Below the pieces are notes generated by a model. The model was not told where the DNA came from. It saw nothing but the letters and a program-made list of their open reading frames with translations, and ran no database searches. From a virus: DNA of 64,000 bases. Shown here in pieces: positions 135 to 40,588 of this stretch (within the stretch, counting starts at the first letter, position 1; each line of letters starts with the position of its first letter). Both the position numbers and the translations under genes were made by a program. The stretch lies in IMG/VR virus record IMGVR_UViG_3300021963_000041, positions 1 through 64,000 of that record; one strand, 5' to 3'.

Positions 135-794
135 TTACTCTAATCTTAATTCGTGATGATCATGTGGCAATGCTAGCTTAGCTATTGGCTGCTTCTCCAT
201 GATGTTTATTACTTCTTGTAATGAGATAGGTTCTAAACCATTCCCCTCACAACCAACATCCATTGCCTTACCTTTATGTAATCGTACATCAGGCATTAGG
301 TGAACGTGACCGTGTAAGTGGATCACTCCATTGTTCATGTTATTCCAGCTTGCAATCGGATAGTGCATACAAACAAAATCGTATCGCTCCATAGCAGACT
401 TTGTAGTGACACCAGGACGTACAACATTGAGATACAAGTACTCATGTACTGAGCTGAATAGACTTTGTATACCCTCTTTGTTTCGTTGAATGTGATGATC
501 GTGGTTTCCAAGTACCAAGTGAATATTCTTACACACTAGTCTGTTACGAAACTCAGCAATACTCTCAAATCCACCAAACGACCAATCACCTAAGTGAATC
601 AGTATGTCGTTCTCCCCAACCAATGCATTGATGTTATTCACCAATGCATCGTTCATATGACTAAGGGATTTGAACTCTCTGGTCAATCGTTGAGCATTAG
701 TCCACTTAGTAGTGGCTGAGCAGATGTTTGCGTGGTTGTAGTGAGTATCACTCGTAAACCATAACCTTTGTCCTTTTTCTAATACTAATTTCAT
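135..794 (-). CDS. Calcineurin-like metallophosphoesterase
   Basis: DTH, HLGD, GNHD and HGHVH motifs. Confidence 0.9.
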
Positions 795-798
795 AACC

Positions 799-829
799 TA
801 AAGATAACAACTTTATTTCGATTTTGCAA
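799..829 (-). promoter_or_regulatory. Bacteroidota-type promoter TTG-N20-TATCTTTA, ATG 4 nt downstream (leaderless)
   Basis: Minus strand GTTGCAAAATCGAAATAAAGTTGT-TATCTTTA-GGTT-ATG. Confidence 0.75.
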
Positions 830-837
830 CAGCTTTG

Positions 838-1968
838 TTAAAAAACTAACGAAGCTCTTGTGCCTTGTTCCTTCAAGCGATACTGAACTCTAGGAAACCC
901 AGTAGGCTGAATCATGATGGTTTTGCCTTTGCGATCCACGATATCGTACTCGTGTGGGTCAAGTGATAACTCCCAGTAACCTGGTAAAACTAATTCTGGA
1001 TCCTCTGCGCTAGGCTGCTCTGGGGACTCGCTGTTCAATAGTCTCTCTACCACCGACTGCTTCTCGTTAAGTTTCTTAGACTTCTTCTCTGGTCTAGTAG
1101 CCTCAACGTGATCCACAGCCTTACGAGAAATCTCTATGTCATTCCCAGGTACCCAGCTTGTTGGATAACACTCAAACTCATGTCCGTCAAGGACTTCAAC
1201 TACATTGTAGTACTTAGACTCCGCTTTAAGATTCAGGTGTCGTCCACATGCAATCGCATCCTCATTGAACAAATTCATCTCCTTGATGAGATTTGTCAAC
1301 AAGTCGAATGTACGCATGTTCACTTTCTCAAAGAATTGATGAATAGACTCTCGGTGGTCTTTGTTGATCAACATATCGTCAATCACCTCATCGACTAGTT
1401 CGAACTCTAAGTCGCCATACGCTTTGCGGTACTTGATTCGATTAAGTCGGTTGATCAAGTACTCGTTGATACGCTCCTCGTTCACCGTCAGTAAGAAGAT
1501 CAATCGAGTGCTATAGTTACCATCCATCAACGATAACATATCGTACTGGTTGTCTCTATTGTACACCTTCTCGAACTCATCGATAAAGATGATGCACTGT
1601 CCCAACTTAGGATTCGTAAGGAAGTCCACAAACTCAGAACCTTCATAAGGCTCACCAACAATGATCACCGGCAGCTGAGAGTCCATACAGAACTTCTGTG
1701 CTGTAATTGTCTTACCGGTACCTTTCAGTCCCGTTAGTAAGATACCTAGGTTCTTGTTGCTGTTGTGCTTCCAAGACTCTAACCATCGATCTACAATCGA
1801 ATGATCTCCATACACCTTCTTAGGCATTACGAAGTCTTCCTTCTGTACTAGATAGAACTCTCCACTGCGTGGGTCTCTCTTTAGCATGTAGTTACCTGCT
1901 GGCAACTTGTCATACGTTGCATCTACATCCGTGAATGTTAAGCGATGCCCTGATTGAATTATACTCAT
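838..1968 (-). CDS. AAA+ ATPase
   Basis: Walker A GLKGTGKT, Walker B IIFIDEFEK, sensor LTVN, RLNR arginine finger. Confidence 0.85.
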   Translation of the reverse strand: MSIIQSGHRLTFTDVDATYDKLPAGNYMLKRDPRSGEFYLVQKEDFVMPKKVYGDHSIVDRWLESWKHNSNKNLGILLTGLKGTGKTITAQKFCMDSQLPVIIVGEPYEGSEFVDFLTNPKLGQCIIFIDEFEKVYNRDNQYDMLSLMDGNYSTRLIFLLTVNEERINEYLINRLNRIKYRKAYGDLEFELVDEVIDDMLINKDHRESIHQFFEKVNMRTFDLLTNLIKEMNLFNEDAIACGRHLNLKAESKYYNVVEVLDGHEFECYPTSWVPGNDIEISRKAVDHVEATRPEKKSKKLNEKQSVVERLLNSESPEQPSAEDPELVLPGYWELSLDPHEYDIVDRKGKTIMIQPTGFPRVQYRLKEQGTRASLVF

Positions 1969-1984
1969 GTAACTTATTTACTTA

Positions 1985-3106
1985 TTAGTGTGAATCTCCT
2001 ATATCATGTTTCTCTCCGTAGATTAGGTAATCTGGATTGATCACCTTCGCTACCTTATTACGCTCTCCAGTAAAGTACTTGATCACAATACCTTCGTGTG
2101 GTACTTTTGAATCCTCAATGTAGTTGTTGAATGTGTACTGATCTTGAACCTCTTGTGACCAATCTCCATAGTGAAGGATTGGAACATAAGGTAATGTTAA
2201 TTCGCGAGTAATGATTATCCAAGCATCGTAGGTTGACATATACTCTCCATTCCACTTAACATCAAAACCATTAAACTCTATGTCAGTCAAACCATAATCA
2301 TAGTTCTTCTGAATACCAGCTCCAAAGATTTCTCCATAAAGGATGATACCTTCACCAATCTCTTTAGTACCATACCCCTTTGCTAATGCCCAAAGCTTGG
2401 CTTTGATATCTAGTTTCTCAGCAATAGTAGCCCATACATCTGTATCATAGAATCCTTGTGAGTCAGAACCTTTCTCTACGTTATGAGATCCATATACATA
2501 CTCATACTCAACCCACTCATTACCAAAGAACTTTTTCACCTTATCCCAGATCGACAACTTAGACTTCTTAACAATACCATAGCGAGCATTTGTACCATGA
2601 ATCTTTCTAGTAATCTCAACTAGATCATTCTCAGTAAACATTCCAGCTACGTTCTTCAAGTTAGGGAACTTGTAGTAGATATGGAAGTTAGGATTATCTT
2701 GGTATCGGATCTTACGACCTGATGATAATTGTACCTGACGTACTGGTGGTTCATACTTGTAGATGTTCATTGCGTACATCATGTCCTTACCATCATAGTA
2801 GTTTTCCATGAATGGAATGTATTGTACTGGAATGATCAAGCACTCAGAGTATACACCTCTCAGCTTAACAGTACGCACACGTCCACCTTTACGCAGGTAG
2901 CTAGTCACGTTCATATCGTCTGAAAGCTCTTGAGGAATGACAGCATCTGTAGTAGCTATCACAACCAAGTCATTCACCTCGTATGCATCCTTCTTGATGA
3001 TAGCTTGCCAGCCACCCACCAATGCAAGCTCGATATTGTCTGCTCCTGCTATTGGTAAAATCTCTCCGATTGTACCAACATAACATACACTGTTATTATT
3101 TTCCAT
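1985..3106 (-). CDS. RNA ligase (Rnl2/DRB0094-like, N-terminal OB domain)
   Basis: Motif I KIHGTN, GEIFG, FDV, EGIVIK, K..N..YL; N-terminal PIAGADNIE OB fold. Confidence 0.88.
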   Translation of the reverse strand: MENNNSVCYVGTIGEILPIAGADNIELALVGGWQAIIKKDAYEVNDLVVIATTDAVIPQELSDDMNVTSYLRKGGRVRTVKLRGVYSECLIIPVQYIPFMENYYDGKDMMYAMNIYKYEPPVRQVQLSSGRKIRYQDNPNFHIYYKFPNLKNVAGMFTENDLVEITRKIHGTNARYGIVKKSKLSIWDKVKKFFGNEWVEYEYVYGSHNVEKGSDSQGFYDTDVWATIAEKLDIKAKLWALAKGYGTKEIGEGIILYGEIFGAGIQKNYDYGLTDIEFNGFDVKWNGEYMSTYDAWIIITRELTLPYVPILHYGDWSQEVQDQYTFNNYIEDSKVPHEGIVIKYFTGERNKVAKVINPDYLIYGEKHDIGDSH

Positions 3107-3380
3107 AGTCTGAATATTTTAAACCCCATTGTAAATTAAACCACATCATTTCGTTCTCTGCTCTCTTAGCTGACATTCGAAATGTATTGATAAGATACTT
3201 CTTACCCCAATCTCTAAACTCCTCCGACTGCTTCATAGTCATTGTGTACTGTTGGAACCAGTTGTCCACCCCTAAGATATCATTGTAGGTAACCTCATGT
3301 CCAGCAATCTCAAACATCTTGTTGATAAGATCGACAACTGCTTGCTCTTGCTTTTGTTCTCTAGTCAATCTCTTCGCCAT
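3096..3380 (-). CDS. Hypothetical protein
   Basis: 94-aa ORF overlapping its neighbours in operon fashion. Confidence 0.7.
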   Translation of the reverse strand: MAKRLTREQKQEQAVVDLINKMFEIAGHEVTYNDILGVDNWFQQYTMTMKQSEEFRDWGKKYLINTFRMSAKRAENEMMWFNLQWGLKYSDYGK

Positions 3381-3729
3381 CGGTTTCTAGTGTTAATGAA
3401 TACTTCTCCTGCACTCCTGGAATTGCTGTGAAGATTGGTGTTACTTTGTAGACTGAGTTGAGTGTGTGTAATAAATCATAACCCTCAAACTCCTCTTGCT
3501 TCTGTACTTGCGAAGTAGCAAACCAGCGATCTCCATAAGTCACAAACAAAGAGCAATACTGGTTGCTAGTCAATAAGCTGACCATGCATGCATCAATCAC
3601 AAATCCTGGATTATATCCATTCGGATGATTGTTATCAAACTTCGTATCTTCGATCTTCTCAACCTTAACGGGAATGTTTGTATACTTTCCAAAGTTGATA
3701 TTGTTTATATTATCTCTAGGTCCGTTCAT
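3361..3729 (-). CDS. Hypothetical protein
   Basis: 122-aa ORF in a packed operon. Confidence 0.7.
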   Translation of the reverse strand: MNGPRDNINNINFGKYTNIPVKVEKIEDTKFDNNHPNGYNPGFVIDACMVSLLTSNQYCSLFVTYGDRWFATSQVQKQEEFEGYDLLHTLNSVYKVTPIFTAIPGVQEKYSLTLETDGEEID

Positions 3730-3732
3730 ATC

Positions 3733-4131
3733 TTATAGTTTTACTTCAAAACGATCTTTCATTTGTTGTAGCTTCTCTTCTGGAACACCATGCTGATTAA
3801 CTCCCTCATGACGATTCTCAACAATCACAGAGTACACTCTATAACCCCAAGCCTTTGCCATATCATAGTAAGGCTGCATCTCCCACTCCTGAGTGAATGT
3901 ATTAGACACTACAATAGTCTCATGCATTCCAGTTGTATGATTAACAATCATAGCTGTGTTGACCCAATTCTGACACGACTGGTGTGCTTCTTTGATCTTG
4001 GTTGGATCAAACTTATACTCACCTTTGTCCATAAAGAACTCGTCAGTCTCAAAGTGTGTACCACCTAATGACTTAGCGAATGTTGACTTGCCTGCTCCAG
4101 GCACTCCTCTGACTAGATATAAAGCTTTCAT
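3733..4131 (-). CDS. P-loop polynucleotide kinase-like protein (AAA_33)
   Basis: RGVPGAGKST, VSNTF and HGVP motifs typical of Pnk/N4BP2-like kinases. Confidence 0.8.
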   Translation of the reverse strand: MKALYLVRGVPGAGKSTFAKSLGGTHFETDEFFMDKGEYKFDPTKIKEAHQSCQNWVNTAMIVNHTTGMHETIVVSNTFTQEWEMQPYYDMAKAWGYRVYSVIVENRHEGVNQHGVPEEKLQQMKDRFEVKL

Positions 4132-13602: not shown

Positions 13603-13893
13603 TTATGCTTCTCCCATTGGTCCTCCATATGGATATGTCGGAAATGATTGTGATTGTTGTTGAATTAGGTGATTCTGAAGCTCCCTGATTGCCAATCCCA
13701 AATCTCTACTATACTCCAGAGATCGAGTGATCATTTCATCCTGCTCCTCGTCAACTTGATTAAGAGCTTCTAACTCTCTTTGTATGGCTCGTATGTGAAT
13801 TATTGCTCCGGTCAAGCCTAAGCCTAATAAGAACACAAGTGCCATTAATGCTACTACGATTGCTTCCATTATGCTGTATGTGGTACCAACCAT
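13603..13893 (-). CDS. Membrane-anchored coiled-coil protein
   Basis: N-terminal TM followed by a heptad-like region. Confidence 0.6.
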   Translation of the reverse strand: MVGTTYSIMEAIVVALMALVFLLGLGLTGAIIHIRAIQRELEALNQVDEEQDEMITRSLEYSRDLGLAIRELQNHLIQQQSQSFPTYPYGGPMGEA

Positions 13894-14297
13894 CTACCAC
13901 AATCTTGTGGCAAGCGATTAATGTGTTTATAGTTATTAATATAGCCCATCATGTTAGCTGATCCAATAGCGTTAGCGGAGTGAACCATTACTCGACATAC
14001 TGGAGCTCCATCCATCCACTGCTGTACCAACCACTTAGTACAATCCATTCCAGTTTTCTCTGTAATGTTGTCGTAGTTGATTGTGTAGTTCTTTGTAACA
14101 CCATACAACCACTCGTTCATTGCACTATCACCTAAGTCATGATCCAAAGAGATGAGTTCAACATTCTCCAAGCCAACTTCAGTAATCTTGTCTACAAACT
14201 CATCGTAACTTCTTACGACTGTCCATTGTGGCGCATCTACTAGCTCCTCGGCTAGTGGTGTGCGCACGTCATCTAAATAAATGTAATATCTTTCCAT
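13869..14297 (-). CDS. Cyclic-phosphate-processing receiver-like domain protein
   Basis: YLDDVR, ISLDHDLG, TGMD and VHSAN motifs. Confidence 0.75.
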   Translation of the reverse strand: MERYYIYLDDVRTPLAEELVDAPQWTVVRSYDEFVDKITEVGLENVELISLDHDLGDSAMNEWLYGVTKNYTINYDNITEKTGMDCTKWLVQQWMDGAPVCRVMVHSANAIGSANMMGYINNYKHINRLPQDCGRWLVPHTA

Positions 14298-14310
14298 AGC
14301 TTCAAAAAAT

Positions 14311-14329
14311 AAATGCAGGTTCTTGTGAC
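14311..14329. repeat. Inverted repeat arm in 3' UTR of 14338..14670
   Basis: + strand AAATGCAGGTTCTTGTGAC; reverse complement of 14694-14711 with one extra base. Confidence 0.85.
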
Positions 14330-14337
14330 GGGTTAAT

Positions 14338-14670
14338 TTATCCGTTTAATTGTTTCTTGGTTTGTTTTTCAGCTTCTTTTACCATAAAGTAGGTATCGAT
14401 CAGCTTGTCGATTCGTTTGTCTGTATATGAATTGCATGCAGTAACTGCATCCGTGATTTGATTATTCACACCCCTGATTCGATCGTCAATAGCTTTGTAG
14501 ACTTCGTTATCTTGGTGGTGCATCTCTCTATCAACATTCAAGAGCCATTCCTCTAGTTGTTGAATACGTGTTTGTTGCTTGTACGCCTTCACAATGCTCA
14601 CAATAATAAGAGCAGCAAATGCCACTCCCACCATTGTTAACACTCCAAAAGCAAATGATAGTGTTTCCAT
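14338..14670 (-). CDS. Membrane-anchored coiled-coil protein flanked by inverted repeat
   Basis: N-terminal TM, then coiled coil with YTDKRIDKL. Confidence 0.7.
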   Translation of the reverse strand: METLSFAFGVLTMVGVAFAALIIVSIVKAYKQQTRIQQLEEWLLNVDREMHHQDNEVYKAIDDRIRGVNNQITDAVTACNSYTDKRIDKLIDTYFMVKEAEKQTKKQLNG

Positions 14671-14693
14671 ATCGTTTTCCTTTTTTTGAATAT

Positions 14694-14711
14694 GTCAAAG
14701 AACCTGCATTT
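14694..14711. repeat. Inverted repeat arm in 5' UTR of 14338..14670
   Basis: + strand GTCAAAGAACCTGCATTT, starting 2 nt after the tRNA-Arg discriminator. Confidence 0.85.
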
Positions 14712-14712
14712 G

Positions 14713-14785
14713 TGATCCGATCAGGACTCGAACCTGAAACCTACAGCTTAGAAGGCTGTTGCTCTATCCATTGAGCTATCGAACC
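14713..14785 (-). tRNA. tRNA-Arg(TCT)
   Basis: Cloverleaf: GGTTCGA/TCGGATC acceptor, ACAGC-CTTCTAA-GCTGT anticodon arm, GTTCGA T-loop; no encoded CCA. Confidence 0.93.
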
Positions 14786-14791
14786 GATCCG

Positions 14792-14863
14792 TAGTCCCAC
14801 GGGGAATCGAACCCCGCTTTCCAGGATGAAAACCTGGCGTCCTAACCGATAGACGATGGGACC
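14792..14863 (-). tRNA. tRNA-Glu(TTC)
   Basis: GGTCCCA/TGGGACT acceptor, CCAGG-TTTTCAT-CCTGG anticodon arm, GTTCGA T-loop. Confidence 0.93.
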
Positions 14864-14869
14864 ATTAGT

Positions 14870-14900
14870 TGAATATACAACTTATTCCTCAGACTTCCAA
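14870..14900 (-). promoter_or_regulatory. Promoter TTG-N20-TATATTCA for tRNA-Glu/Arg
   Basis: Element ends 6 nt upstream of the tRNA-Glu 5' end. Confidence 0.65.
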
Positions 14901-15100
14901 ACACTGAGAAGTTGATTTTTCCAATACTCAGCTGCTGGTCGTAGGATCAGATAACCCATGAATCCTATAACAAAACCAACAATACTAAAACCATCCTCTT
15001 TGAGCCATATCATTAATAACTCTGCACCCAATGTCATCATTGAGAAACCTAAAAACCAATATAAAAAATTGGTTGCAAACTTTAACACTTTACTCCACAT
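14882..15100 (-). CDS. Two-TM membrane protein within tRNA cluster
   Basis: 72 aa with two hydrophobic segments. Confidence 0.6.
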   Translation of the reverse strand: MWSKVLKFATNFLYWFLGFSMMTLGAELLMIWLKEDGFSIVGFVIGFMGYLILRPAAEYWKNQLLSVWKSEE

Positions 15101-15115
15101 ATATAATTAATTTAG

Positions 15116-15201
15116 TACTACTGGCCGGAATCGAACCGGCACGGCCATCACTGGCCAAGGGATTTTAAGTCCCTCGTGTCTACCTATTCCACCACAGTAG
15201 C
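15116..15201 (-). tRNA. tRNA-Leu(TAA)
   Basis: GCTACTG/CAGTAGT acceptor, AGGGA-CTTAAAA-TCCCT anticodon arm, long variable arm. Confidence 0.93.
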
Positions 15202-15206
15202 ATTCG

Positions 15207-15284
15207 TGCCCCCTGCAGGACTCGAACCTGCACCCGAAGACTAGATCCTAAGTCTAGCGCGTCTACCAGTTCCGCCAAGGGGGC
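15207..15284 (-). tRNA. tRNA-Leu(TAG)
   Basis: GCCCCCT/AGGGGGC acceptor, CTAGA-CTTAGGA-TCTAG anticodon arm, short variable hairpin TC-TTCG-GG. Confidence 0.92.
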
Positions 15285-15289
15285 TAATA

Positions 15290-15401
15290 AAAAAAGGTGT
15301 AGTTGATTTTATCAGGAATCTGGGATCTGCCTCAGCAGCGCTTCACACACCATAAGAGAGTTACTAAGTGTGTACCCTTGCGACACGTCTCTCCACGTCT
15401 A
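15290..15401 (-). ncRNA. Candidate structured ncRNA upstream of tRNA-Leu
   Basis: GC-rich non-coding ~110 nt with GGAGAG/CTCTCT and ACACAC/GTGTGT pairings, ending in a U-tract. Confidence 0.3.
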
Positions 15402-38148: not shown

Positions 38149-39756
38149 TTAATAGTATGCCGGTGCAGACCCTTTCTCATCCTTCTCTTCAGGATCAAAA
38201 CTAATCACACACTCGGTTGTTAATAACGTACTAGCTGCTGATGTAGCTAACTCGATTGCTGTTCGTGTAACCTTAGTTGGATCAATGATACCAGCTACAA
38301 ACATATCAACAAAGCGATCATTACGAGCATCATAACCCCAAGTATCACTATCAATGTTTGCTACTAAAGCTTCAGCACTCTTTCCTGCATTCTCTACGAT
38401 TGCTTTGAAAGGTGCAAAGCATGCTCTCTTAACAATCTTAACTCCAACCTCTTGGTCTTCGTTCTCGACCTCAACATCAATCTGTGAGGCATTGTAAAGA
38501 GCAATACCACCACCTGGTACGATTCCCTCTTCAACAGCTGCACGAGTTGCATGCAATGCATCGTCTACACGATCTTTCTTCTCTTTGAGTTCAATCTCTG
38601 TTGCTGCTCCAATATTCAATACTGCAACACCACCGATCAACTTACTCATACGCTCTTTCAAGAATTGCTTCTCATAATCGCTATCAGCTTTCTCATACTG
38701 AGCTTTGATTTCTTCGATACGAGCCTTGATAGCTTCTGTATCACCAGCACCGTCAACGATGATAGTCTCATTTTGTGAAACAGTCACTGTACGTGAAGTA
38801 CCTAGCATCTCAATTGTCAGTTTCTCCAACTTCATTGCCTTTTGTTGAGCAACAACAGTACCACCAGTTAAGATAGCGATATCTTCTAGGTTGTGAATCT
38901 TACGATCACCAAATCCTGGAGCTTTGATTGCAACCACATTCAAGATACCACGAGCTTTGTTGAGTACTAATGCAGCTAAAGCTTCACCATCTACATCGTC
39001 AGCGATGATTACGAGTGGTTTGTTTTGCTTACTGCAAGTTTCCAATAATGGTAAGATGTCCTTGACAGAGCTAATCTTACGGTCGTAGATCAAGATGTAC
39101 GGATTCTCCAATGTAGTCGTCATTGTGTTGTTGTTTGTTGCAAAGTAAGGTGAAACAAATCCACGCTCAATCTGCATACCTTCAACAATCTCCAAAGTAG
39201 TCTCTGAGGTCTTAGACTCATCTACTTGGATTACACCATTCTTACCAACACTTTCCATAGCTTCTGCAATGATTGCTCCGATTGTAGAATCATTGTTAGC
39301 TGAAATAGTTGCTACTTGCTGAATCTCTTCATTTGTAACTACATCACGACTCATCTCACGAAGATTGTCAATAACCGCTGCAGATGCTTTATCCATACCA
39401 CGCTTAAGCTCGATAGGATTGTGACCAGCATTGATTGCTTTCAAACCTTCATTGTACATATAAGCTGCCAATACGGTTGCTGTAGTTGTACCATCACCAG
39501 CCATTTTAGCTGCTTTCATTGAAACCTCTTTTAAGGCCTGTGCACCTGCATTCTCTACTGGATCTTTTAGATAAATCTCCTTCGCTACTGATACACCATC
39601 CTTTGTGATAACTGGACCACCATGCTCACGTTCAATCATTACGTTACGTCCTTTTGGACCTAAAGTTGCTTGAACTGCTGATGATAACTGATTAACACCA
39701 CTACGCACTTTGTCGCGCGCTTCTGAATTGAAACTTAAAACCTTTGTCTTGCTCAT
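38149..39756 (-). CDS. groEL: Chaperonin GroEL
   Basis: [44 protein letters not shown]; lacks GGM tail. Confidence 0.97.
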
Positions 39757-39758
39757 AT

Positions 39759-40055
39759 TTACTTTTTGATTTTTGTTAGTAAGTCGCGCTCTTGTACGAT
39801 ATGATAGTCTACACCATCATACTCCATTACTTGGGCTGCGAAACGTTGGTAGATTACAATGTCTCCAGGTTTGCAGGTTGTTTCTACAAACAGACTAGGA
39901 GCTGCCCAGAAACCTTTACCGGCTTCTACTACCTCTGCTTTTAAAGTTTTTTGATCATCCACTTCAGGTAATAAGATACCACCTGAGCTAATTTCATCCT
40001 GTTCGACAGGTTTGCATACTAGCTTATCGCTAATAGGTTCGAATACACTACTCAT
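39759..40055 (-). CDS. groES: Co-chaperonin GroES
   Basis: P..D.., SSGGILLP, GD.V and ERDLL; adjacent to groEL. Confidence 0.9.
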   Translation of the reverse strand: MSSVFEPISDKLVCKPVEQDEISSGGILLPEVDDQKTLKAEVVEAGKGFWAAPSLFVETTCKPGDIVIYQRFAAQVMEYDGVDYHIVQERDLLTKIKK

Positions 40056-40093
40056 AATTATATAACTGTTGTTTTAATTAATATACGAAAAAA

Positions 40094-40109
40094 AGACCCA
40101 AGAGCAAGC
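40094..40109. repeat. 3' UTR arm complementary to hsp20 5' UTR, followed by U-tract
   Basis: mRNA GCUUGCUCUUGGGUCU-UUUUUU pairs over 16 nt with 40573-40588. Confidence 0.8.
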
Positions 40110-40115
40110 GTTGGT

Positions 40116-40526
40116 TTATTTAATTTGTAACTTTTTTGGTTTAGCTTCTTCTGCAAATGGAATAGTAATGATCAATAGACCATTCTCCATAGCCGCTGTA
40201 CTCTCTGATAAAGTGTACTTTGGTGAGATTTTGTAAGCTAGATTAAATGATCGACGAGCAATACCTCTACACTGATATGTGCGAGCTTCTTCTTCTCCGT
40301 CATGCTGCTTTGGTTTGTTGTAGGACACTTTGAGTACATCAAGTTCGATATCAATATCGACTTCACCTTTACTCAAACCGGTACAAGCGATCTCAAATAC
40401 AAGACCGTCTGAATGTTCGTAAATGTCTACTGGGTGTGGAATTTTGATCTCTGAAATAGATCCGAAACGCGAATGTGCGTTAAATAGGTCCCGGAATAGG
40501 ACGTCAAAAGTGACTTCTGTGTTCAT
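40116..40526 (-). CDS. Small heat-shock protein Hsp20
   Basis: PVDIYE, RGIARRSF and A.MENGLL.I alpha-crystallin motifs. Confidence 0.92.
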   Translation of the reverse strand: MNTEVTFDVLFRDLFNAHSRFGSISEIKIPHPVDIYEHSDGLVFEIACTGLSKGEVDIDIELDVLKVSYNKPKQHDGEEEARTYQCRGIARRSFNLAYKISPKYTLSESTAAMENGLLIITIPFAEEAKPKKLQIK

Positions 40527-40572: not shown

Positions 40573-40588
40573 GCTTGCCCTCAGGTCT
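40573..40588. repeat. 5' UTR arm of hsp20 long-range stem
   Basis: mRNA AGACCUGAGGGCAAGC, 3 nt after TATTTATA. Confidence 0.8.

Follow-up and report, generated by a model that had tools for sequence, protein, structure and literature searches.

The window analysed here, the first 64 kb (64,000 nucleotides) of the 127,149-bp phage record IMGVR_UViG_3300021963_000041, contains on its minus strand a gene for a protein of 110 amino acids (aa) which is enclosed by two complementary segments. Both flank the open reading frame (ORF) on the coding strand, one in the 5′ untranslated region (UTR), directly behind a tRNA-Arg gene, and one in the 3′ UTR. As judged from comparison with relatives, these arms are an RNA element and not a DNA element, their pairing being selected on the sense strand, and a second gene of the phage, hsp20, has a stem of the same design. 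With a probability of roughly 55%, we favor the reading that the selected stem clamps both ends of the mRNA, would shield them and, in the window, would supply the terminator hairpin.

The minus strand holds 151 of the 154 ORFs called in the phage record. Its gene order around the stem-enclosed unit, hereafter the cassette, is tRNA-Leu, tRNA-Leu, a 72-aa ORF, tRNA-Glu, tRNA-Arg(UCU), the 110-aa ORF and a cREC_REC gene. The following features were assigned.

14712..14785, minus strand: tRNA-Arg(UCU), without encoded CCA (ARAGORN; Rfam RF00005, 70.5 bits, 14713-14785)
14694..14711, minus strand: 5′ arm of the closing stem, AAAUGCAGGUUCUU followed by UGAC (inverted-repeat search, sequence, fold)
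14671..14693, minus strand: leader, unpaired, with an AGGA ribosome-binding site (sequence)
14338..14670, minus strand: ORF of 110 aa, N-terminal membrane anchor followed by one long predicted helix (ORF call, AlphaFold model)
14585..14652, minus strand: conserved predicted hairpin of 28 pairs inside the part coding for the membrane anchor (minimum free energy (MFE) fold, RNAalifold on alignment A1, described below)
14311..14329, minus strand: 3′ arm, GUCA-C-AAGAACCUGCAUUU, with a bulged C at 14325 (inverted-repeat search, sequence)
14304..14310, minus strand: A + U6 tract, directly after the stem (sequence)
13869..14297, minus strand: cREC_REC (cyclic-phosphate processing receiver domain) gene, downstream of the cassette (Pfam PF20274, E 2.9e-21)

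The repeat search found a perfect 14-nt inverted repeat (14311-14324 and 14698-14711; 100% complementary, 373 nt apart), which is extended by four further pairs (14694-14697 with 14326-14329) beyond the single bulged C. An inverted repeat of 14 + 4 pairs with one bulge had originally been predicted from the sequence of the window, and it was confirmed by the repeat search and the minus-strand sequence. The 5′ arm begins at 14711, i.e., 1-2 nt beyond the end of tRNA-Arg (14713 according to Rfam, 14712 according to ARAGORN), in agreement with the predicted start 2 nt after the discriminator base. Likewise, the 3′ arm was expected to follow the stop codon and to precede AUUUUUU; it starts 8 nt past the stop codon, and A + T6 comes directly after it, at 14310-14304. 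The inner part of the 5′ arm, GUUCUUUGAC, forms a core which is kept in most of the family. Both the MFE and the centroid fold of the region close the stem (z −5.1), the probabilities of its pairs range from 0.77 to 1.0 in a model RNA spanning 14711-14304, and it still closes in a precursor model with the tRNAs included. A stem followed directly by a T-run has the form of an intrinsic terminator; its loop of 373 nt is longer than the short-loop definition of a local terminator allows, and a consensus scan detected no local terminator hairpin on the minus strand at the cassette. An Rfam search of 13800-15400 returned nothing besides tRNAs.

Taken alone, a 14-nt inverted repeat is near chance level in a 127-kb phage, whereas its placement and conservation are not: the genome contains 26 perfect inverted repeats of at least 12 nt within 3 kb, and two of at least 14 nt. 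When the upstream 70 nt and the downstream 60 nt of each of the 151 minus-strand genes were scanned for pairing, the 110-aa gene ranked first with a score of 30, which is reached by a fraction of 3.1e-4 of 19,477 non-cognate flank pairs. The hsp20 gene (40116-40526) ranked second (27.5; non-cognate fraction 6.2e-4), and no third gene stood out among the 151. Such a genome-wide scan for inverted repeats in gene flanks had been suggested together with the original prediction, which suspected a recurring phage strategy. The design does recur in hsp20, but the term is too broad for two genes in this phage and two gene families among 4,691 ORFs. In a scan of these ORFs, taken from all fetched loci, the design was almost confined to these two families, and the few other matches are either AT-rich or consist of duplicated terminators. 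The closing stem belongs to particular genes and is not a habit of the whole genome.

Homologs of the 110-aa protein were found in 62 viral-contig loci (24-95% identity), which were reduced to 35 non-redundant groups by removing near-duplicates. Calling a stem at a score of at least 22, we found an ORF-enclosing stem at the same place in 25 of the 35 groups, including one borderline case (L031), while L022 retains the 3′ arm only. The arm sequences vary by lineage, with at least 15 distinct versions. The gap between 5′ arm and ATG is 15-32 nt in the relatives (mostly 19-25 nt), and the 3′ arm mostly starts 1-15 nt past the stop codon, with larger distances of 20-27 nt in L017 and L026. Cognate arms have a mean score of 31.6 compared to 16.5 for non-cognate arms, and the observed sum was reached in none of 20,000 partner permutations.

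Covariation was assessed using two alignments. RNAalifold did not return the long-range stem on alignment A1 (22 sequences), in which the arms are out of register. Alignment A2 consists of the 15 core-sharing sequences, which are in register, and was tested with the window’s own 14 pairs; the seven sequences dropped have unrelated arm sequences and are covered by the partner permutation test instead. In A2, 90.0% of the cells pair compared to 69.6% after shuffling, double-change cells number 50 compared to 16.2, and the covariation score is 0.619 compared to 0.215 (0/500 shuffled alignments in each case). Compensatory changes occur in 9 of the 14 pairs, and sliding the partner by 1-3 columns leaves 33-49% pairing. 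The structure came from one of the aligned sequences, which somewhat favors the stem. Nevertheless, the slid and shuffled controls as well as the independent permutation test argue for a real signal.

Two further observations concern the strand and the pace of evolution. With symmetric scoring of transitions, 18 mismatches were counted as G.U on the sense strand versus 4 as A.C, the latter being G.U on the antisense strand only (25 groups, two near-duplicate pairs included). In two relatives (L258, L247), the arms are 94-95% identical to those of the window, compared to 65-69% for the ORF and 69-72% for the next gene, and the sole difference in the 3′ arm is the bulged base. In these relatives, the arms have diverged less than the coding DNA between them. 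Because of the covariation, the G.U bias and the slower evolution of the arms, we conclude that selection acts on pairing in the sense transcript. The proposal that the two untranslated ends of the mRNA pair with each other is thus upheld, for RNA of the sense strand, by the covariation and the G.U bias.

The hsp20 stem of the window is formed by two arms located as follows.

40573..40588, minus strand: 5′ arm of the hsp20 stem, AGACCUGAGGGCAAGC (flank-pairing scan, homolog comparison)
40094..40109, minus strand: 3′ arm of the hsp20 stem, GCUUGCUCUUGGGUCU, followed by U7 (flank-pairing scan, homolog comparison)

This stem comprises 16 bp with three G.U pairs. Homologs of hsp20 are present in 58 loci (L144-L201), and all of the 22 distinct ones analysed show the stem, with arms covarying around a common core, CUUAGGG/CCCUAAG. 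Cognate arms score 29.0 versus 18.7 for non-cognate ones, the observed total was reached in none of 20,000 permutations, and 24 G.U mismatches compare to 8 A.C mismatches. The architecture noticed earlier at both genes of the window is therefore a design which recurs in 22 hsp20 loci with covarying arms. Apart from this, the 5′ arm of hsp20 in the window can also fold locally (CUGAG-GGCAAG-CUCAG), and the genes for GroEL, GroES and Hsp20 lie in a row (38149-40526, minus strand) beside DNA polymerase.

The position of the arms relative to neighboring genes was compared across the stem-bearing relatives of the 110-aa gene. In 10 of 23 loci, a tRNA (Met, Leu, Ser, Glu or Arg) or a transfer-messenger RNA (tmRNA) predicted by ARAGORN ends 0-6 nt ahead of the 5′ arm. 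Rfam adds two insert-bearing tRNAs ending 5 nt (L002) and 1 nt (L006) ahead of the arm, raising the number to 12 of 23. CCA was seen in none of the 10 tRNA-arm flanks inspected. In L017 and L037, a second tRNA begins 2-4 nt after the 3′ arm, without a T-run, and tRNAs thus lie on both sides of the cassette. Where no tRNA is present upstream, the 5′ arm is preceded by the terminator of the upstream gene and a short, A/T-rich, promoter-like spacer; 17 of 22 hsp20 loci show a −10-like hexamer whose end falls −4 to +7 nt relative to the beginning of the arm. To judge from this gene anatomy, the 5′ arm would lie at the expected physical start of the RNA in every context. Where a tRNA or tmRNA directly precedes the arm, the message released by tRNA processing would begin at the foot of the stem. 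Processing of the tRNA 3′ end at this point, as originally proposed, agrees with the 12 of 23 abutting loci, from which we infer the mRNA end itself. A sigma-70 promoter based on the TTGACA of the 5′ arm can be dismissed, as the promoter scan lists none there and its geometry would place the start inside the ORF.

Concerning the tRNAs themselves, three Rfam hits (L002:2849-2956, L006:1599-1702 and L036:1661-1762) are 102-108 nt long, about 30 nt over normal, and have no ARAGORN call; they may be insert- or intron-bearing phage tRNAs. Genes for tmRNA were predicted by ARAGORN in L056 (2559-2939) and L057 (2559-2940), where tmRNA replaces the tRNA and ends approximately 6 nt ahead of the 5′ arm of the cassette, and also in L031, L042 and L044. 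In the window, the 72-aa ORF (14882-15100, minus strand) between tRNA-Leu and tRNA-Glu appears hydrophobic by eye; no stem encloses this ORF itself, and the flanking tRNAs account for its high duplex score.

We propose that the first approximately 18 nt of the mRNA would pair with approximately 19 nt beginning 8 nt past the stop codon, and that the message of 110 codons would thereby become one large loop. The 5′ end would arise by 3′ maturation of the CCA-less tRNA-Arg, and the 3′ end would form at the U6 tract, with the long-range stem acting as the terminator hairpin. RNase Z-type cleavage after the discriminator leaves a 5′-phosphate on the trailer. A 5′-monophosphate activates RNase E and RNase J, and burying it in a helix would therefore counter this activation. 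With both termini buried in the same helix, RNase E or J, RppH and 3′ exonucleases would be kept off, and the gene would form a self-contained unit regardless of its surroundings. We infer the RNA end positions, the termination at the U-tract and the protection from nucleases from features of the sequence.

Several observations weigh against this proposal. A loop of 373 nt is unusual for a terminator hairpin, the T-run behind the 3′ arm is missing in about one third of the stem-bearing relatives (23 flanks, inspected by eye), and some hsp20 loci run directly into the next gene. Because of these T-run-less relatives and run-on hsp20 loci, termination is not a universal role of the stem. Further, 10 of the 35 groups, all of them distant homologs, lack the stem and have local GC hairpin terminators of the ordinary kind. 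The constancy of the inner core, GUUCUUUGA, is not accounted for by pairing alone. A perfect duplex of 18-27 bp is a typical RNase III substrate, and the stem might be cut instead of kept. Finally, support from RNA consists of assembled (Logan) metatranscriptome contigs, which cannot show ends, strand or level of an RNA, and RNA libraries may hold DNA. Contigs of four runs cover the ORF at approximately 95% identity. One contig (14332-14691) covers precisely the loop enclosed by the arms, and two contigs end at 14329 and 14315; together with 14332, ends from three runs fall in 14315-14332. Another contig (14221-14583) crosses the 3′ arm into the next gene, indicating that termination is incomplete, if it occurs. 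A back-joint between 14304 and 14711 was not seen in the RNA contigs, a weak test in which absence carries no weight; the same applies to uncovered stretches and to contig depth. Overall, the contigs give a weak hint of a discrete RNA and of some read-through.

Instead of being kept, the stem might be a candidate RNase III site at which both strands are cut, which would excise the mRNA from the tRNA precursor and the downstream RNA, and a stem remnant may then cap the ends. Perfect duplexes of 17-27 bp are indeed present in nearly all members, cassettes lie inside tRNA arrays, the two wedged between tRNAs lack a T-run, some hsp20 stems have no terminator tract, and RNA contigs end in or at the arms (14315, 14329, 14332 and 14691). 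On the other hand, no RNase III gene was found in the phage genome (PF14622: 0 matches), and the tRNA processing enzymes alone set the ends where tRNAs flank the cassette. We consider RNase III excision a less likely alternative, which is compatible with end clamping, as the two are not exclusive. The invariant core, in turn, would suit a switch of translation as in hok (tac/fbi) or icaR. In nascent or 3′-truncated RNA, the pyrimidine-rich core of this arm would then serve as an anti-Shine-Dalgarno sequence, and translation would be limited to the full transcript, whose 3′ arm captures the core. In the window, the core of the 5′ arm (14694-14702, GUUCUUU) can pair, G.U pairs included, with the purines of the ribosome-binding site at 14676-14684, and leader-only folds pair the core (GUUCUU; GUCUC in L011) with the AGGA/AGGAG region in approximately 13 of 22 loci, a count which has no control. 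An invariant core next to a covarying outer stem is what would be expected of a segment with two partners; moreover, the product is a small membrane protein and its mRNA has a second conserved hairpin. The hok mRNA combines 5′-3′ closure with a metastable 5′ hairpin (tac/fbi; PMC9841398). However, the anti-Shine-Dalgarno helices are of low stability, at −1 to −5 kcal/mol in most loci, and L008 and L019, which have other arm sequences, show no such pairing. Neither was an antisense RNA found for the cassette: the consensus scan listed no plus-strand promoter in 14300-14720, Rfam returned tRNAs only, and the sole plus-strand terminator-like hairpin in this range (14327-14346) has no promoter paired with it. 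The protein has 110 aa and not <60, and hsp20 has the same design without being a toxin. We regard a switch as less likely still than RNase III excision.

At the level of DNA, the arms could be the ends of a mobile or recombining cassette, i.e., terminal inverted repeats, an inversion switch or a recombination hot spot. Transposon-like ends, inversion or target duplication had been named beforehand as observations which would speak against an RNA role; checking the relatives gave no support for them. It is true that the neighborhoods differ, as the cassette follows tRNA-Met, -Leu, -Ser, -Glu or -Arg, tmRNA or its own promoter, and that it lies directly upstream of the cREC gene, as in the window, in just 1 of 80 viral cREC loci (L064) and 5 of 80 metagenome cREC loci. 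Yet the arms differ between lineages while staying complementary, and recognition by a transposase or recombinase would require sequence conservation. The preponderance of G.U over A.C mismatches (18 vs 4) speaks against DNA ends as well. No consistent direct repeat or target duplication was seen outside the arms (23 flanks, by eye), the cassette has no transposase, and its orientation and the spacing to ATG and stop codon are always the same, without any inversion. An empty site usable for comparison was not found among relatives, as 79 of 80 viral and 75 of 80 metagenome cREC loci lie in unrelated contexts, and the 72-aa upstream neighbor as query matched one close relative contig but no cassette-less relative. 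All in all, mobile ends appear very improbable. The idea that the RNA ligase and kinase of the phage join the paired ends, yielding a circular mRNA, fared worse still. The phage does encode an RNA ligase of the Rnl1 type (1985-3106) as well as a PNK-like ATPase (3733-4131), and a 5′-phosphate from tRNA processing, lying at the base of the stem close to a 3′ U-tail, would resemble a broken hairpin loop. However, Rnl1 was found in only 2 of 5 large cassette-bearing records, Rnl2 and RtcB in 0 of 5 each, and the only record rated 100% complete bears the stem and has none of the three families. Since promoter-driven members would, in addition, bear a 5′ triphosphate, we find ligation of the ends hardly credible.

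Pairing between the 5′ and 3′ ends of an mRNA is, as a kind, already known in bacteria from a few cases. In the nearest case tested by experiment, the hbs mRNA of Bacillus subtilis, a 14-bp pairing between 5′ and 3′ UTR limits RNase cleavage, as compensatory mutants showed, and icaR and hilD are cited as relatives of this interaction (Braun, Durand, Condon 2017, PMC5737220). As in hbs, a stretch of the 5′ UTR (14 nt in hbs, 14 + 4 here) pairs with the 3′ UTR beside a terminator. In hbs, pairing modulates nuclease access and compensatory restoration was engineered, whereas restoration in the phage stem is natural. The 5′ partner in hbs lies inside a structured leader and the terminator is a separate, local one; in the phage, the 5′ partner would be the first nucleotides of the RNA, the long-range stem itself precedes the U-tract, and the pairing is known from conservation in about 20 lineages and two families. 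Similar to hok, as far as the source named above describes it, the outermost 5′ and 3′ segments close an mRNA which codes for a small membrane protein and is highly structured elsewhere as well. Unlike hok, however, the Shine-Dalgarno sequence lies outside the stem, the product has 110 aa compared to typically <60 aa for such toxins, and hsp20 shares the design. Beside hok, aapA1 is reportedly another type I toxin mRNA with such a closure. Compared to intrinsic (Rho-independent) terminators, the phage element has the stable stem followed by a U-tract (A + U6 here, U7 in hsp20), but its loop of 373 nt contains a whole gene instead of 3-8 nt, and several relatives have no U-tract. Long-range processing stems of rRNA operons and ORF-bearing intervening sequences of 23S rRNA are RNase III substrates. 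Here, too, distant segments enclose a functional unit in a stable-RNA operon (the cassette follows tRNA-Leu, -Leu, -Glu and -Arg); in contrast to rRNA intervening sequences, the stem surrounds an mRNA located within an array of tRNAs, the protein belongs to another family and the arms contain no heptamer repeats.

Experimentally, end pairing of bacterial mRNAs has been shown for a handful, namely hbs, icaR, hilD and hok. The full-text literature searched, from which most subscription journals are outside, contained no phage example of an ORF-enclosing, end-pairing stem, and a review of post-transcriptional control in T4 has no match for the term “long-range” in its available text (PMC3014915). 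Specific to the case described here are the flush junction with the tRNA 3′ end, a long-range stem which would be the sole terminator hairpin, the sharing of the design by two unrelated families and a second hairpin in the coding region. The families offer a natural comparative set, in which about 20 lineages of one and 22 loci of the other keep the stem by compensatory change, flush with tRNA 3′ ends or transcription starts. Tentatively, and with considerable doubt, we suggest that the stem-closed mRNA may be a portable phage module, in which a gene inserted into a tRNA array or between operons would come with a closing stem: either the tRNA-processing enzymes of the host, or a promoter together with a U-tract, would release an end-locked message, and the invariant core would double as an anti-ribosome-binding site, an integrity checkpoint restricting translation to complete, closed messages. 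If this were true, the module would be the bacterial-virus counterpart of the closed-loop mRNA of eukaryotes and would account for the occurrence of such a stem in many lineages of two unrelated families, one encoding a membrane-anchored helix protein and the other Hsp20. The questions raised are whether a terminator hairpin can form over hundreds of nucleotides, whether end pairing releases and protects messages located in tRNA operons, and whether translation is coupled to completion of the transcript. The stem is also a possible design for stabilising or insulating synthetic mRNAs in bacteria. For annotation, inverted repeats flanking an ORF in phages are not necessarily transposon ends.

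The hairpin inside the coding region (14585-14652) was assessed in 22 homologs. Here, 92.7% of the cells pair compared to 79.8% after shuffling (0/500), with 90 double-change cells versus 37.5 and 34-55% pairing in slid controls; these figures are to be read with the hairpin having been predicted on the same alignment and with G/U-rich hydrophobic codons lifting the baseline.

The 110-aa protein has at least 387 homologs without an assigned function, the names given in the source being spurious, and matched no Pfam or PHROG family. The AlphaFold model predicts a single helix over residues 2-109 (pLDDT 90.6). With this single-helix model and no Pfam match, the protein does not belong to the S23p four-helix bundles.

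Elsewhere in the window, a set of RNA-repair type is located at 135-4131 (minus strand), comprising a phosphoesterase in addition to the Rnl1-type ligase and the PNK-like ATPase mentioned above, to which the cREC_REC protein may be added. Among the cREC homologs in L064-L143, many have a TAnnTTTG-like motif 5-10 nt before the ATG, e.g., TATATTTGTAAAAATG. Such motifs would fit promoters of the Bacteroidota type combined with leaderless or short-leader starts.

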